A stretch of DNA of 64,000 nucleotides from Escherichia coli (GTDB taxonomy: Bacteria > Pseudomonadota > Gammaproteobacteria > Enterobacterales > Enterobacteriaceae). The first letter of the stretch is position 1. The number at the start of each line of letters is the position of its first letter. The DNA lies in the NCBI RefSeq assembly GCF_050320075.1, contig NZ_CP190018.1; one strand, given 5' to 3'. The position numbers and the translations under genes are program-made. This document shows positions 7,011-14,340 of this stretch, one piece after another. The notes beneath the pieces were generated by a model. It was not told where the DNA came from. It was given only the letters and a program-made list of their open reading frames with translations, and searched no databases.

Positions 7011-10000
7011 TTAGTCATTTTGTTGACAGAAAACAGCTATCTCCTGGTCCAGCTCTGCAATGTGTTCTTTAACAGAGTTCAGCAACTTAAGAATTTCAGG
7101 CTTACTGTCATCTGAAACAGGTGTTATTTCTAACTGATGGCTAATATTAATCAACTTTTGCAAATTGAGGATGTTAGCCGCACCGTGGATGCGATGAATA
7201 CACTGATGGAAAGTTCTGTTGTCGCCAGCTTCTAGTGCATGAAACGCAGCGGGTAGATCTTTATGCGTTTCATGCTGGAAAGTCATGAGAATCTCCTGCA
7301 TCAGTTGTAGATCGTTCGCCGTATTATTTTTCAGGGCCTCGATATCAAGGTGGCGATACTGAGGTGCAATAGGCGCAACCTGGTGTAACTGACTTAAATG
7401 TGTTTTCAGTACATCCAGGGTCAACGGTTTGAACAAACATAAGTTCATGCCGCAATTTAACCCTTTTTCACGTTCGTTAGCCTGTGCGTTGGCTGTAAGC
7501 CCCCAGATGGGTAAGGAAGAATTTTGCTCACGGAGTTTGCGAGTCAACTCAAAACCATCCATATTCGGCATATTAACGTCAGTAATAAGCAGATCATAAT
7601 GTTGCATACTGACTTTGTGTAGCGCTTGCACACCATCAGTTGCTTCATCAACATCATATCCTAATAGGTTTAGCTGGCGTTTGAGTAATAGCCTGTTGGT
7701 CGGATGATCATCCGCGATTAATATGCTCAACTTTTCAGGGAGTGTCATGGGTTGTTCTGCTTTTGCCTCGACAGCCGCCACTTGTTGGGTAATTTCTACC
7801 GGGATTGTGATCGTAAATGTCGTTCCTATGCCTGGATGACTTTCTAATGACAAATCGCCCTGCATGTTTTTAATTAATTCTTTGCAGATCATTAAGCCTA
7901 AACCAGAACCTGTTTGCTGACGACCTGCACTTGTTTGGCTATAGCGTTTAAACAGTTGTTGTTGTTCTTCCTGCGATAATCCACTTCCAGAATCCATAAT
8001 CGTCATTTTGATAACAGCGTGGTTGTCATCAATGTCACCCAGGGAGGTCGTAATTTTTACTGCCCCCTCGGTAGTAAATTTAAGAGCATTGCTCAGTAAA
8101 TTAGATAAGACCTGCTTAAACGCCTGAGGGTCGATCTTAACCTGGTAATGTTCTGGAAACGTACTGCTGCAACTTAATGCGATGGATTTGCTTGCAGCAA
8201 TCGCACCGAAAGAATGACAAGTGTTCTGGACTAAAGTAGGGATATCGACCCATTGTGGTTGAAGTTGATAGTTACCCGATTCAATTTTGTCGACATCAAG
8301 GATTTCACCAATTAAGCCGAGGAGTGATTGTCCGGTGGCGTAGGCAAGTGAAATCGCCTCCACCCGTTGCTCCTTGCTAAGACCAGAACCCGACAGAAGT
8401 TCCAGGAAGCCCATAATGGAGCTTATTGGTGTTCTTATTTCGTGACTCATTGTTGCCAGAAACTGGCTTTTTGCGACAGTTGCATTGATCGCTTTATTTC
8501 TCTCTACCTCGAGTGCATGAATTAAATCACGCGTCTCGGTAATATCTTGCCAACCACAAATATAAACAGCATGATCGCTGGCTGGCAGATTGCATAATGT
8601 ATGCCAGTGGTTAATGCATCTTTTCTCGATGCCATTATCAATTTCAAATACCTGTGTGTATATTGTTCGATTTTCTTTCGTTTCTGCTGTGACTTCATGC
8701 GCATTAGAAAAAACATCTTTAAAGGGTGAGTCACTGTTTTCTAATGGTAACATTGCATTTTTGTAGTAATCCGCAGTGAAATAATGTTCAAAAGCACTAT
8801 TATGACTAATGACATTACCTTGCCAGTTTACAACATAAGTTGGATTCGGTAAGGAATCCGAGAGTGCTTTTCGGAATGATATTTGGTTTTCTAAATCACC
8901 CTGAATGACTTTACGACGACGAACTGAGCGTAACAGGTAGAATCCCCATAAAAGGCTACTGCCAACTAATAAAACGGATAATGTCGTGACAATATAAAAT
9001 TGCTCGCTATAGAGGTCCCATGTGTCAATGGTCACATTGGGCATTTTAATCCATTTTTCCGTCAGGCGCAGAACTTCGCTTGGGGGAATTGCATTCAGTG
9101 CTTTATTAATAATATCCTTAAGTTCCGGTTCTCCGCGAGGAAAAGCGAACGAAAGCGATGCATTCGGAACGCCGGGAATAAGAAAATGATAAAGTTCATT
9201 AGGATAGTAATGGTCGATCATGTAACGTGAATTTAACTGTGTCGCGACCAGAGCATCAAGTTCGCCTTCCTTGACCTTGTGAAATGCAGCGCTGGCGTTA
9301 TCGACTTTTATCCACTCTACCTCCGGATACATCTCTTTTAATTGCGAATGAAGCTCATAATAATAGGGAATGGCAACTTTCATTCCTTTTTTTAATGTTT
9401 GTTCACTGTCAGGCGCTTTTTGCATGACAAAAACGTAAGGCGTTGTTATGAAGGCTTCAGCAAATAAAACATTATTTTCTCTATCTTCACTATAAATAGC
9501 GGCGGGCAATATATCCCATCCACCGGGGTTAAGCTGTGTCCCCGCATGAATATTGTGTGAAACGGTGATCGGAGAAAAATTTAAACCTGTTTGCAAGGTA
9601 ATAATATTAAGAATATCACCCATCACGCCCCGAACTGAGCCAGTTTCATCTGTCATAGAATAGGGTGGCGAGTAAGGATTTTCCAGCACCTTTAAATCGG
9701 GATGCTGCTTAATCCACTGTTTTTCATGTTCAGTGAGTTCTAATGGTTTGTTCAGAAAGGCCAGGTTTCCTGTATCAAGCCAATTTTGTGATACTTCATA
9801 GCGAACTTCATTTGTTAAAGCATCAACAAACCGATTGAGTACTTCATTAAGAACGACTGAATCTTTTCTGGTTAAGAAAAAGTTATATTGACGCGGCGAG
9901 TTATAATATTTCACTACATTTAAGGAGTGAGTGAAATAGCGGGAAATCATACTGCTGGTAATAATGTTACTACCAATAAAGTAATCATTCTGTCCGGCTG

Positions 10001-10604
10001 AGACGGATGCTAATGCCTGATATAAATTTGTAAAAGAGATAATTGTTGCTTTTGGAAATGATTGATGAATTACCTCATCTGGAGGGTAATTTGCTACCCG
10101 AGCAATATTTACTGGTTTTGATGAGGTAAGCGGTCTCATTGAATCGTGAAGGGTGGTGACCAGCGCCGGAAAGGTAATTATCAGCGGTTTGGTTGCAGCA
10201 ATGTCATCATTAAGAGGCGGCGAAGCAACTAAATGTGATAACACTATATCGACTTCCCCTTCTGTAAGCGCGTCCATTGCTTTTTGATGATCTGCGTATT
10301 CCCGGAGTGTTAATTTGATATTTAACGCTCTTTTTAAAAGATTTAAATAATCAGCATTAATACCACGAACCCGTTGCTGCGAATCGGTATGCAACAAAGT
10401 AGCCGTTTGGGACTTGTGTACTGCAATCACAAGATTTTTTTTGCTCGCTAACCAACGTAATTCCTTGTTGCTCAGACGTAGTGGATCAAGCGTGACACGG
10501 TTGTTACTACTGATGCCACGATATTCGATGTAATCTTCGTCTGCGAAACTTATGGTCGACCAAAGACCACAACAGAGAAGAATAATATAGGGTAAAAACT
10601 TCAT
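7011..10604 (-). CDS. evgS: hybrid sensor histidine kinase EvgS
   Basis: Track ORF 1197 aa with periplasmic domains, HisKA/HATPase, receiver and HPt regions; sequence recognised as EvgS. Confidence 0.95.
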   Translation of the reverse strand: MKFLPYIILLCCGLWSTISFADEDYIEYRGISSNNRVTLDPLRLSNKELRWLASKKNLVIAVHKSQTATLLHTDSQQRVRGINADYLNLLKRALNIKLTLREYADHQKAMDALTEGEVDIVLSHLVASPPLNDDIAATKPLIITFPALVTTLHDSMRPLTSSKPVNIARVANYPPDEVIHQSFPKATIISFTNLYQALASVSAGQNDYFIGSNIITSSMISRYFTHSLNVVKYYNSPRQYNFFLTRKDSVVLNEVLNRFVDALTNEVRYEVSQNWLDTGNLAFLNKPLELTEHEKQWIKQHPDLKVLENPYSPPYSMTDETGSVRGVMGDILNIITLQTGLNFSPITVSHNIHAGTQLNPGGWDILPAAIYSEDRENNVLFAEAFITTPYVFVMQKAPDSEQTLKKGMKVAIPYYYELHSQLKEMYPEVEWIKVDNASAAFHKVKEGELDALVATQLNSRYMIDHYYPNELYHFLIPGVPNASLSFAFPRGEPELKDIINKALNAIPPSEVLRLTEKWIKMPNVTIDTWDLYSEQFYIVTTLSVLLVGSSLLWGFYLLRSVRRRKVIQGDLENQISFRKALSDSLPNPTYVVNWQGNVISHNSAFEHYFTADYYKNAMLPLENSDSPFKDVFSNAHEVTAETKENRTIYTQVFEIDNGIEKRCINHWHTLCNLPASDHAVYICGWQDITETRDLIHALEVERNKAINATVAKSQFLATMSHEIRTPISSIMGFLELLSGSGLSKEQRVEAISLAYATGQSLLGLIGEILDVDKIESGNYQLQPQWVDIPTLVQNTCHSFGAIAASKSIALSCSSTFPEHYQVKIDPQAFKQVLSNLLSNALKFTTEGAVKITTSLGDIDDNHAVIKMTIMDSGSGLSQEEQQQLFKRYSQTSAGRQQTGSGLGLMICKELIKNMQGDLSLESHPGIGTTFTITIPVEITQQVAAVEAKAEQPMTLPEKLSILIADDHPTNRLLLKRQLNLLGYDVDEATDGVQALHKVSMQHYDLLITDVNMPNMDGFELTRKLREQNSSLPIWGLTANAQANEREKGLNCGMNLCLFKPLTLDVLKTHLSQLHQVAPIAPQYRHLDIEALKNNTANDLQLMQEILMTFQHETHKDLPAAFHALEAGDNRTFHQCIHRIHGAANILNLQKLINISHQLEITPVSDDSKPEILKLLNSVKEHIAELDQEIAVFCQQND

Positions 10605-10608
10605 GTGG

Positions 10609-11223
10609 TTAGCCGATTTTGTTACGTTGTGCGAATGTGTAAAGATCCATCAGTGATTTACATTCTAATTTTTCCATCAGGCGACTTTTATAAGTGCTGA
10701 CAGTTTTGTTGCTGATGAACATTTTTTCCGCAATGTCATTATTATCCTTGCCATCAAGAATATATCGCATGACACTAATTTCTTGTTTCGATAAGGAGTC
10801 GAGTTTTTGCTGGTCGGACGTTAAACTTCCAACAAACCGGTTGAGAGAGAAGGGGAAATAGCAGTAGCCATTTTTTGCAGCTTCAATAGCCGCAATGATA
10901 TTGTTCATGCCTTCTTTTTTACTCACGAATCCATTAGCGCCAGCATCAGCACAATGTTTCCCGTAAAAATGGTCATTTTTAGCGGAGACGATAATAATAA
11001 TTCCGCTATATTGGCGCTTCCTCAGCGTTTCTAACACCTGGATACCGTTAACTCCGGGGATATCGACATCAATGATGACGATATCAGGTTTAAGTGTTTC
11101 CACCCGCTGAACGGCACTTCCCCCTTCAGTCAACTCCGCTAAGATTTCAATATCGTTTTTGATCAATAAATTACGAATTGCTGCGATAGCAAGAGGATGG
11201 TCATCAATAATTATTGCGTTCAT
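10609..11223 (-). CDS. evgA: response regulator EvgA (LuxR/NarL family)
   Basis: Track ORF 204 aa, receiver domain plus C-terminal HTH; immediately upstream of evgS. Confidence 0.95.
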   Translation of the reverse strand: MNAIIIDDHPLAIAAIRNLLIKNDIEILAELTEGGSAVQRVETLKPDIVIIDVDIPGVNGIQVLETLRKRQYSGIIIIVSAKNDHFYGKHCADAGANGFVSKKEGMNNIIAAIEAAKNGYCYFPFSLNRFVGSLTSDQQKLDSLSKQEISVMRYILDGKDNNDIAEKMFISNKTVSTYKSRLMEKLECKSLMDLYTFAQRNKIG

Positions 11224-11447
11224 AGATTATTCCCTTTGCAATGAAGCATCTCCCTTCTCCCTGTAGTAATACAGACATAAGGCATCATCTCATTTTCTCA
11301 ATAAAAATAAGAAAATTAGAGCTTCCTTTAAGATAATTCGACAAGTATACCATATAAATAGTCGGCATAAATGAAATGTCAACAATAAAATCAGGGATTG
11401 TACCGATGATTTATAGTTTCACATTAGCACTATAAGTCTTCTCACTA

Positions 11448-11465
11448 ATCCTACATGCGTAAGAA
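11448..11465. promoter_or_regulatory. candidate EvgA box in evgA-emrK divergent region
   Basis: ATCCTACA-TG-CGTAAGAA, 14 of 16 half-site positions matching the EvgA consensus. Confidence 0.5.
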
Positions 11466-11638
11466 TTGTATTGCAAAAGCCACGGTTTAGTCCTCTGTTG
11501 TTTTTTTTGCACCTCATTTAAATTAGGCCTCCAACGTTCCTGGGACAATGTGCAACACATGCACTGTGTTTGATATGAAGAATGAATACTCTTTTCATTC
11601 AATTCATAAATTTCATCTATGCGAAATGAGAGATAATA

Positions 11639-12802
11639 GTGGAACAGATTAATTCAAATAAAAAACATTCTAACAGAAGAAAATACTTTTCTTTATTGGC
11701 GGTAGTTTTATTTATTGCGTTTTCAGGTGCCTATGCCTATTGGTCAATGGAATTAGAAGACATGATTAGTACAGATGATGCCTATGTCACGGGGAATGCA
11801 GATCCAATTTCTGCACAAGTTTCAGGCAGCGTCACTGTCGTTAATCATAAAGATACGAACTACGTTCGACAGGGTGACATTTTAGTCTCACTGGATAAGA
11901 CTGATGCCACTATCGCACTCAATAAAGCTAAAAATAATCTGGCAAATATTGTTCGGCAAACGAATAAACTGTACTTACAGGATAAACAATACAGTGCCGA
12001 AGTCGCTTCAGCACGTATTCAGTATCAACAATCTTTAGAAGATTATAACCGTCGTGTACCTTTAGCGAAGCAGGGGGTTATTTCAAAAGAAACGCTGGAG
12101 CATACCAAAGATACGTTAATAAGTAGCAAAGCGGCATTGAATGCTGCTATTCAGGCTTATAAAGCGAATAAAGCTTTAGTAATGAACACACCATTAAACC
12201 GTCAGCCACAAGTCGTTGAAGCTGCGGATGCAACCAAAGAAGCCTGGTTGGCGCTTAAACGTACGGATATTAAGAGTCCGGTTACCGGCTACATTGCCCA
12301 GCGAAGTGTTCAGGTCGGCGAAACAGTGAGTCCCGGACAATCGTTAATGGCTGTCGTACCGGCACGTCAAATGTGGGTTAATGCTAACTTTAAAGAAACA
12401 CAACTCACGGATGTACGGATTGGTCAATCGGTCAATATTATCAGCGATCTTTATGGTGAAAATGTTGTGTTTCATGGTCGGGTGACAGGGATCAATATGG
12501 GAACCGGCAATGCGTTCTCCTTATTACCTGCACAAAATGCGACAGGGAACTGGATCAAAATCGTTCAGCGTGTACCGGTTGAAGTTTCTCTTGATCCAAA
12601 AGAACTCATGGAACATCCCTTACGTATTGGTTTATCGATGACAGCAACTATTGATACGAAGAACGAAGACATTGCCGAGATGCCTGAGCTGGCTTCAACC
12701 GTGACGTCCATGCCTGCTTATACCAGTAAGGCTTTAGTTATCGATACCAGTCCGATAGAAAAAGAAATTAGCAACATTATTTCGCATAATGGACAACTTT
12801 AA
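11639..12802 (+). CDS. emrK: multidrug efflux periplasmic adaptor EmrK (EmrA paralog)
   Basis: Track ORF 387 aa, membrane-fusion protein family; stop overlaps emrY start (TAATG). Confidence 0.9.
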   Translation: MEQINSNKKHSNRRKYFSLLAVVLFIAFSGAYAYWSMELEDMISTDDAYVTGNADPISAQVSGSVTVVNHKDTNYVRQGDILVSLDKTDATIALNKAKNNLANIVRQTNKLYLQDKQYSAEVASARIQYQQSLEDYNRRVPLAKQGVISKETLEHTKDTLISSKAALNAAIQAYKANKALVMNTPLNRQPQVVEAADATKEAWLALKRTDIKSPVTGYIAQRSVQVGETVSPGQSLMAVVPARQMWVNANFKETQLTDVRIGQSVNIISDLYGENVVFHGRVTGINMGTGNAFSLLPAQNATGNWIKIVQRVPVEVSLDPKELMEHPLRIGLSMTATIDTKNEDIAEMPELASTVTSMPAYTSKALVIDTSPIEKEISNIISHNGQL

Positions 12803-14340
12803 TGGCAATCACTAAATCAACTCCGGCACCATTAACCGGTGGGACGTTATGGTGCGTCACTATTGCATTGTCATTAGCGACGTTTATGCAAATGTTGGAT
12901 TCCACTATTTCTAACGTCGCAATACCGACAATATCTGGCTTTCTGGGAGCATCAACAGACGAAGGCACCTGGGTTATCACTTCGTTTGGCGTAGCAAATG
13001 CCATTGCGATCCCTGTTACCGGCAGGCTGGCACAAAGAATAGGCGAATTAAGATTATTTTTACTTTCAGTCACTTTTTTTTCGCTGTCTTCCTTAATGTG
13101 TAGTTTATCGACCAATCTTGATGTGCTGATATTTTTTAGAGTCGTTCAGGGATTAATGGCGGGGCCGTTAATTCCACTGTCACAGAGTTTATTATTAAGG
13201 AATTATCCACCAGAAAAAAGAACATTTGCTCTGGCATTATGGTCTATGACCGTGATTATCGCGCCGATATGTGGGCCGATATTGGGCGGTTATATTTGTG
13301 ATAACTTTAGCTGGGGTTGGATATTTTTAATCAATGTCCCTATGGGGATTATCGTTCTGACATTATGCTTAACCTTACTTAAAGGAAGAGAAACTGAGAC
13401 TTCACCGGTCAAAATGAATCTACCAGGACTGACCCTGTTAGTGCTCGGTGTTGGTGGCTTGCAGATAATGCTTGATAAAGGGCGCGATCTGGATTGGTTC
13501 AACTCGAGTACAATAATAATACTAACAGTAATGTCAGTTATTTCTCTGATTTCTTTAGTCATTTGGGAGTCGACCTCAGAGAACCCGATTCTTGATCTCA
13601 GTTTGTTTAAGTCCCGTAATTTCACCATTGGTATTGTGAGTATCACATGCGCATATTTATTTTACTCTGGGGCGATAGTCCTTATGCCGCAGTTACTCCA
13701 GGAAACGATGGGGTATAATGCGATATGGGCCGGACTTGCCTATGCGCCCATCGGCATCATGCCGCTATTAATATCACCTTTGATAGGACGTTATGGCAAC
13801 AAAATTGATATGCGGTTGTTGGTGACATTTAGTTTTTTAATGTATGCGGTTTGCTATTACTGGCGTTCTGTGACATTTATGCCAACGATTGATTTTACAG
13901 GCATCATTTTGCCACAGTTTTTTCAGGGATTCGCCGTCGCCTGTTTCTTTTTACCCTTAACAACGATTTCGTTTTCAGGTTTGCCAGATAATAAATTTGC
14001 CAATGCCTCGAGTATGAGTAATTTTTTTCGTACCTTGTCAGGATCAGTTGGTACGTCGTTGACAATGACGCTGTGGGGACGACGCGAATCGTTACACCAT
14101 AGTCAGTTGACAGCAACCATCGATCAATTTAACCCCGTGTTTAATTCATCGTCACAAATTATGGATAAATACTATGGTTCGCTTTCAGGGGTTCTTAATG
14201 AAATTAATAATGAAATAACTCAGCAGTCACTTTCAATTTCTGCAAATGAGATTTTCCGTATGGCGGCTATTGCTTTTATCTTACTTACAGTTTTGGTTTG
14301 GTTTGCGAAACCGCCGTTTACAGCGAAAGGCGTTGGGTGA
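12802..14340 (+). CDS. emrY: MFS multidrug efflux pump EmrY (EmrB paralog)
   Basis: Track ORF 512 aa, 14-TMS-type MFS transporter. Confidence 0.9.
   Translation: MAITKSTPAPLTGGTLWCVTIALSLATFMQMLDSTISNVAIPTISGFLGASTDEGTWVITSFGVANAIAIPVTGRLAQRIGELRLFLLSVTFFSLSSLMCSLSTNLDVLIFFRVVQGLMAGPLIPLSQSLLLRNYPPEKRTFALALWSMTVIIAPICGPILGGYICDNFSWGWIFLINVPMGIIVLTLCLTLLKGRETETSPVKMNLPGLTLLVLGVGGLQIMLDKGRDLDWFNSSTIIILTVMSVISLISLVIWESTSENPILDLSLFKSRNFTIGIVSITCAYLFYSGAIVLMPQLLQETMGYNAIWAGLAYAPIGIMPLLISPLIGRYGNKIDMRLLVTFSFLMYAVCYYWRSVTFMPTIDFTGIILPQFFQGFAVACFFLPLTTISFSGLPDNKFANASSMSNFFRTLSGSVGTSLTMTLWGRRESLHHSQLTATIDQFNPVFNSSSQIMDKYYGSLSGVLNEINNEITQQSLSISANEIFRMAAIAFILLTVLVWFAKPPFTAKGVG

Follow-up and report, generated by a model that had tools for sequence, protein, structure and literature searches.

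The window, 64,000 nucleotides of an Escherichia coli chromosome, carries the divergent evgAS and emrKY operons, the first genes of which, evgA and emrK, are separated by an intergenic region of 415 bp (positions 11224-11638). Genes were assigned from the open reading frames (ORFs) listed for the window and from the RefSeq annotation of the K-12-derived equivalent:

evgS, 7011 to 10604, minus strand: hybrid sensor kinase phosphorylating EvgA; full-length ORF, with 29 residues different from K-12
evgA, 10609 to 11223, minus strand: NarL/FixJ-type response regulator of 204 amino acids, identical to K-12 EvgA
emrK, 11639 to 12802, plus strand: GTG start; EmrK identical to that of K-12
emrY, 12802 to 14340, plus strand: EmrY 1 residue off K-12; with emrK, the efflux-pump operon (11639 to 14340)

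Downstream of emrKY lies dsdA, and the left end of the window is occupied by yfdX-frc-oxc-yfdV-yfdE. Within the intergenic region, 183 bp upstream of emrK, we find ATCCTACATGCGTAAGAA, an 18-bp inverted repeat with the following layout:

EvgA-type box, 11448 to 11465: ATCCTACA-TG-CGTAAGAA, with half-sites at 11448-11455 and 11458-11465 and a 2-bp spacer at 11456-11457

EvgS, activated by mild acid and alkali metals, phosphorylates EvgA via a His-Asp-His relay, and the dimer of phosphorylated EvgA binds two half-sites, which here would be ATCCTACA and its near-mirror CGTAAGAA. Masuda and Church reportedly defined, in 2002/2003, an 18-bp EvgA inverted repeat, and are said to have found the motif in 2002 ahead of seven EvgA-induced operons in six regions, a count that would be compatible with emrKY and evgAS having one region in common. 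The cognate regulator of the box is intact in the same genome, both in EvgA, which is that of K-12, and in the full-length evgS. Natural EvgS variants differ in acid responsiveness (PMC5706723), and because the EvgS of the window departs from K-12 at 29 residues, with an identical EvgA, the box of this strain may see a different signal-response curve.

The inverted repeat and related operators

The preliminary description had placed a degenerate EvgA box with 14 matches at this site between the two divergent genes. Measured against the palindrome TTCYTACA-N2-TGTARGAA, which we used as the EvgA consensus (TTCYTACANNTGTARGAA), the repeat indeed matches at 14 of the 16 specified positions, the 2 mismatches being an A for T at 11448, the outermost base, and a C for T at 11458, the innermost base of the right half; location, sequence, and count were thus all accurate. 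The word "degenerate" is true of the two mismatches, but the validated ydeP box also has two, so that a match of 14/16 is normal for the EvgA regulon. When up to two mismatches were allowed, the 64-kb window contained three matches to the consensus compared with 0.06 expected from shuffles (three matches were reached in 0 of 100 shuffles), and the number of chance matches expected in the 415-bp intergenic region alone is approximately 0.0004. The other two matches lie at 427-444, upstream of yfdX (one mismatch), and at 1456-1473, between yfdX and frc (perfect). EvgA binding to inverted repeats upstream of yfdX and at yfdWUVE/frc has been published (PMC3720670), and these two matches therefore serve as internal positive controls. 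The consensus scan of 11224-11638 revealed no second full EvgA box; apart from the box itself, only an isolated TGTAGTAA in the evgA leader comes within one mismatch of a half-site. On sequence evidence, the identification of the box as a correctly placed EvgA-type inverted repeat is supported.

For comparison, we scanned the K-12 ydeO-safA-ydeP region and considered the resulting boxes together with those of yfdX and frc in the window. The K-12 ydeP box, AGCCTACACCTGTAAGAA, has two mismatches (14/16), and the K-12 safA box, TGCCTACAGCTGTAAGAA, has one, as does that of yfdX (both 15/16). The boxes of the regulon (ydeP, safA-ydeO, yfdX, and frc/yfdWUVE) are likewise 8-2-8 inverted repeats with the core CCTACA..GTAAGAA, and share the polarity of the emrK box, the weaker half being distal and the TAAGAA half gene-proximal. 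Read toward the gene, the safA, ydeP, and yfdX boxes have the form nnCCTACA-NN-TGTAAGAn, and the emrK box has such a form toward emrK. Unlike the yfdX, frc, safA, and ydeP boxes, however, the emrK box carries a mismatch at the innermost position of a half-site, reading CGTAAGAA instead of TGTAAGAA; the inner C at 11458 is seen in 0 of the 8 half-sites of these four boxes and might weaken EvgA binding. The emrK box is further set apart from the other boxes of the regulon by its position in a divergent region shared with the gene of its regulator and by an invariant flank of its own, TTGTATT. At the left end of the window, the perfect EvgA box at 1456-1473 reads TTCTTACAGTTGTAAGAA, and the one-mismatch box upstream of yfdX, TTCCTACAATTGTAAGAC (427-444), is followed 38 bp later by TAACTACAACTGTAAGAT (465-482), with three mismatches when scored against the right half TGTRAGAA; this tandem suggests a two-dimer promoter, unlike those of emrK, ydeP, and safA.

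The repeat could instead be the target of another LuxR/NarL-type regulator, namely RcsB, GadE, or NarL. The RcsAB box includes the words TAAGAA and TCCTA, which it shares with the EvgA box, and TAAGAATTGTATTG matches it by eye at 9 of 14 positions; the T-rich stretch following the repeat agrees with the GAD box at 13 positions out of 20. Both matches are weak, however, and the RcsAB half-sites are everted relative to the box, an arrangement that does not correspond to the one seen here. These look-alikes, together with one of the PhoP box (GGTTTA...) noticed near the repeat, were judged by eye and set aside as too weak. The 7-2-7 sites of NarL have dimeric symmetry and a 2-bp spacer like the EvgA box but differ in half-site sequence or orientation. 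By contrast, the 8-2-8 arrangement and the sequence of the repeat are those of the EvgA consensus and of four further EvgA boxes, EvgA is encoded beside the repeat, and loss of evgA alone abolishes emrK induction. Recognition primarily by one of these other regulators is very improbable, and we retain EvgA as the regulator of the box.

BvgAS of Bordetella is the closest characterised relative of EvgAS. Like EvgA, BvgA is a NarL/FixJ-type regulator acting in an unorthodox phosphorelay and has half-sites that contain TTCCTA, its sites at fhaB and bvgA being inverted heptads TTTCCTA upstream of the genes; also shared are a primary inverted repeat placed far ahead of the core promoter and the adjacency of the regulator's own operon to a target gene. 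The two systems differ in organism and in exact consensus.

Predicted promoter geometry and regulation of emrKY

When the promoters were aligned on their boxes, emrK (in all four lineages), safA, and ydeP were found to share an element (A/T)(G/A)TCYT at 24-29 nt downstream of the box. The features on the emrK side of the box are the following:

Invariant flank, 11466 to 11472: TTGTATT, adjoining the right half-site; absent beside the ydeP and safA boxes
AGTCCT element, 11489 to 11494, plus strand: 24-29 nt past the box, at approximately -41 to -36 of the predicted emrK promoter
Predicted emrK -10, 11518 to 11523, plus strand: TTAAAT, at the same offset as in safA and ydeP; predicted start at approximately 11530, giving a leader of approximately 108 nt

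The counterparts of AGTCCT at the same offset are AGTCCT in safA, AGTCTT in ydeP, AATCTT in L002, and TGTCTT in L003, the last two being the related loci described below. A -10-like hexamer stands 53-58 nt past the box: TTAAAT for emrK, TAGAAT for L003, TGtTATATT for safA, and TGtTAATTT for ydeP, so that the ydeP and safA promoters have both AGTCYT and the hexamer at the same distances from the box as emrK. The ydeP leader is 178 nt long (PMC11210196), from which the ydeP start falls 66 nt past the box and the centre of the box at -74.5, at most 1 nt from the prediction based on the -10-like hexamer. By analogy, transcription of emrK is predicted to begin near 11530, which would place the centre of the box near -74.

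The sequence at the predicted emrK -35 position (CTGTTG) is poor, which fits dependence on an activator and accounts for the failure of a generic sigma-70 scan to find a canonical emrK promoter. A plus-strand sigma-70 match at 11362-11391 was rejected as the emrK promoter: it lies upstream of the box and scores below the shuffle expectation. A reading of AGTCYT as a true third half-site, in phase with a further box, was kept only at low probability, as the second yfdX box (465-482) begins 4 bp out of register and a partner half was not seen after AGTCYT in safA, ydeP, or emrK. BvgA spreads cooperatively over low-affinity sites to the -35 region; AGTCYT at the EvgA promoters is at most a hint of such behaviour. 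The predicted emrK leader contains a hairpin, GTGCA-ACACA-TGCAC, followed by a T-rich run (11550-11574, plus strand), which was flagged as terminator-like by the scan; its stem has only 5 pairs, and it could be a leader structure or an attenuator. An Rfam scan of 11000-11900 found no RNA family.

The dependence of emrKY on EvgA is documented. Direct regulation through EvgA binding to the emrKY promoter region is attributed to Kato 2000 in PMC9496106, PMC8350985, and PMC5706723; the emrK promoter is described as directly regulated by EvgA and has been used, as PemrK, as an EvgA-dependent reporter (PMC5706723); and deletion of evgA in Shigella abolishes the induction of emrK-gfp (PMC6393483). 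The box thus lies upstream of an operon with established EvgA dependence, as befits a member of the regulon (PMC6393483, PMC5706723). A full-text literature search with the sequence of the box and with the consensus strings gave no match, and the assignment of EvgA binding to exactly 11448-11465 would follow from motif, conservation, and analogy. We consider it very likely, on sequence and on analogy with ydeP and safA, that the box serves the emrKY promoter as its EvgA operator. A dimer of phosphorylated EvgA would sit on the box approximately 74 bp upstream of the predicted emrK start, at a promoter that has a -10-like TTAAAT and essentially no -35 and would hence depend on an activator; from this upstream position, EvgA would probably recruit RNA polymerase, as at ydeP and safA. 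The activation of emrKY proposed in the preliminary description is accordingly well grounded in the motif, its conservation footprint, the layout shared with ydeP and safA, and the literature on EvgA and emrKY. Regulation of emrKY by EvgA is already documented, and the finding amounts to a correct rediscovery.

Conservation across lineages and E. coli genomes

To compare lineages, one genome per species was scanned with EvgA, which yielded two close loci with a divergent emrK-evgA arrangement. In L002, which is labelled E. coli, EvgA is 98% and the intergenic region 85% identical to those of the window, and the box (2760-2777) reads TTCCTACAGGTGTAAGAA, a perfect palindrome. In L003, located on a 590-kb contig of Yersinia vastinensis, the corresponding identities are 94% and 65%, and the box (2788-2805) reads TGCCTACACGTGTAAGAA. 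The box is thus a perfect or near-perfect palindrome in these two divergent lineages, and it is conserved in all four lineages compared. The longest invariant run of the intergenic region, 14 nt at 11459-11472 (GTAAGAATTGTATT), comprises bases 11459-11465 of the right half-site and the adjoining flank, and 18-nt windows over the box tie for top conservation with the part of the evgA leader that holds evgL and the Shine-Dalgarno sequence. The L002 lineage is represented by strain SCPM-O-B-8794, the box allele of which is missing from 5,426 complete E. coli genomes. In L003, the ORFs flanking emrK-evgA run off the ends of the locus, and 27 bp covering the evgA sigma-S -10 are missing; the 94% identity of EvgA suggests that emrK-evgA reached Yersinia vastinensis by horizontal transfer.

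Among complete E. coli genomes, the 415-bp intergenic region is present in 5,398 of 5,426, at 90-100% identity. Searches with 30-mers representing individual alleles showed that, apart from spacer base 11456, the box is unchanged in at least 5,258 of 5,397 genomes: the K-12 allele ATCCTACAGGCGTAAGAA, with G in the spacer, occurs in 4,888-4,889 genomes, and the allele of the window, with T instead of G at 11456, in 369, whereas approximately 139 genomes match neither 30-mer. Every E. coli genome matching the allele queries has the inner C at 11458, and the same searches found the E. coli allele with T at 11458, as well as the L002 allele, in 0 genomes. The half-sites, including both deviating bases, are thus fixed, and the common polymorphism (T or G) is at a spacer base that the consensus leaves unspecified, as constraint would predict.

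These data bear on the notion that the match is a chance one, or a decayed relic without present function, with EvgA acting elsewhere or indirectly. The two mismatches could be read in this way, given that the inner C at 11458 is a T in L002, L003, and the four comparison boxes and that L002 keeps a perfect palindrome. However, the low chance expectation for the intergenic region, the fixation of both deviations with common polymorphism confined to the spacer, and the overlap of the box with the longest invariant run of the region all speak against decay; moreover, the validated ydeP box also has two mismatches, and in K-12, where the half-sites are degenerate in the same way, emrK serves as a standard EvgA-dependent reporter. 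We attach almost no probability to the absence of function and keep to a functional EvgA box. A related but distinct proposition is that the E. coli box is a weakened derivative of an ancestral perfect palindrome and that AGTCYT is a second, low-affinity EvgA contact; as a combined claim, we regard it as unlikely (its consequences are given below).

Inspection of six further loci showed the box intact in five and lost in one. The exception is NCTC10444 (L085, 2501-3388), in which homology stops at the equivalent of 11402 and is followed by IS1 and then by a fimbrial operon; the box and emrKY are gone, whereas evgAS and its core promoters are kept, so that this strain is a natural example of evgAS without the box. 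Plasmids contain 20 matches to the intergenic region. One such plasmid, pCFSAN061763 (NZ_CP042900.1; 117 kb), carries at 7145-12851 of the corresponding locus (L083) a copy of evgAS bounded by IS1 elements, which keeps the box, ends at the equivalent of 11545 beside IS1, and is without emrKY; the chromosome of its host strain is 100% identical to the intergenic region of the window.

More distant sequences were recovered as well. Klebsiella pneumoniae (L005, 203-220) and Buttiauxella (L008, 2696-2713) have the same 18-mer, TTCCTACAGCTGTCATCC, ahead of their evgA homologues, in surroundings that are otherwise unalignable. In Hafnia (L004, 2565-2582), GTCCTACGTATGTAGGCG stands between an evgA homologue and a divergent gene, the 460-amino-acid product of which has, by eye, the look of an amino-acid permease or antiporter, and a box-like repeat precedes the evgA homologue of an Enterobacter metagenome-assembled genome (L006, 2913-2930). 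These sequences point to a family-wide box upstream of evgA-like genes. A 398-bp contig labelled Rhizobium cauense (L007) codes for residues 1-114 of EvgA with 100% identity; it almost certainly entered that assembly as a contaminant from E. coli.

The evgA side and the role of the box

The preliminary description had further suggested that the box could serve both operons. On the evgA side, the intergenic region contains the following features:

evgA core promoters, 11337 to 11382, minus strand: sigma-S start at 11337 and a second 5' end at 11347
Extended -10 of evgA, 11344 to 11352, minus strand: TGGTATACT, upstream of the 11337 start
-35 of evgA, 11377 to 11382, minus strand: TTGACA (perfect), for the second 5' end at 11347
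evgL, 11220 to 11249, minus strand: 9-codon leader ORF (MLHCKGNNL), the stop of which overlaps the evgA ATG; described in PMC11210196

The two 5' ends are derived from PMC11210196, where the evgA leader is given as beginning at -114 (the sigma-S start, taken from Tanabe 1998) or at -124. From -114, the leader contains four GGA motifs of the kind bound by CsrA, a count that agrees with PMC11210196, and it also includes a hairpin, CUGUA-GUAA-UACAG, at 11261-11274.

An operator acting equally on both divergent operons, with strong autoregulation of evgAS, would be in line with PMC3219618, in which positive autoregulation of EvgA is listed with a single binding site (after Tanabe 1998 and Eguchi 2003). 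The EvgA site already on record for emrKY and evgAS (Kato 2000; Tanabe 1998; the one autoregulatory site in Table 1 of PMC3219618) agrees with the box in genes, regulator, and single occurrence, and the box is the only full one in the intergenic region. The evgA homologues of Klebsiella, Buttiauxella, Enterobacter, and Hafnia are likewise preceded by box-like repeats, that of Buttiauxella in a setting with no divergent gene, and the plasmid-borne evgAS copy retains its box. Against an equal role stands the distance, the box centre being at -119.5 relative to the 11337 start and at -109.5 relative to 11347. With its perfect -35 TTGACA and extended -10, evgA needs no activator and has constitutive promoters of its own. 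Furthermore, evgA fusions are unresponsive to mild acid (PMC11210196), and in macrophages evgA mRNA is unchanged while emrK is strongly induced (PMC6393483). Finally, the polarity of the box fits emrK rather than evgA, and NCTC10444 retained evgAS after an IS1 event took the box away. An equally shared operator is therefore possible but, in our estimate, doubtful: with the box 110-120 bp from the evgA 5' ends, a consensus -35, and a lack of evgA induction, the site does not look like an autoregulatory operator. Of the two roles suggested in the preliminary description, activation of emrKY stands well, whereas autoregulation of evgAS is weakened by the distance and by the uninduced evgA. The box is very likely first and foremost the emrKY operator, and a weak positive feedback on evgAS, the lesser role, may run through it as well.

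The position of the operator and the predicted promoter geometry add no new biology but confirm that a real regulatory site was read without annotation. Small new points are the fixation of a slightly degenerate box in E. coli, as opposed to a perfect palindrome in a sister lineage, and the single spacing plan of three EvgA-dependent promoters, those of emrK, safA, and ydeP. The analysis also defines precise targets for mutagenesis, namely the two deviating bases, C11458 and A11448, together with AGTCCT. Were the box indeed a weakened derivative, the T-to-C change at 11458 could raise the threshold of phosphorylated EvgA for emrKY compared with ydeP and safA, and the raised threshold would extend to any feedback on evgAS; were AGTCYT a second contact, its position at -41 to -36 of emrK, safA, and ydeP would give these promoters a BvgA-like cooperative architecture. 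PemrK is a standard reporter of EvgS activity, and induction of EmrKY driven by EvgAS connects the sensing of acid with the export of drugs and, in Shigella, with survival inside macrophages.
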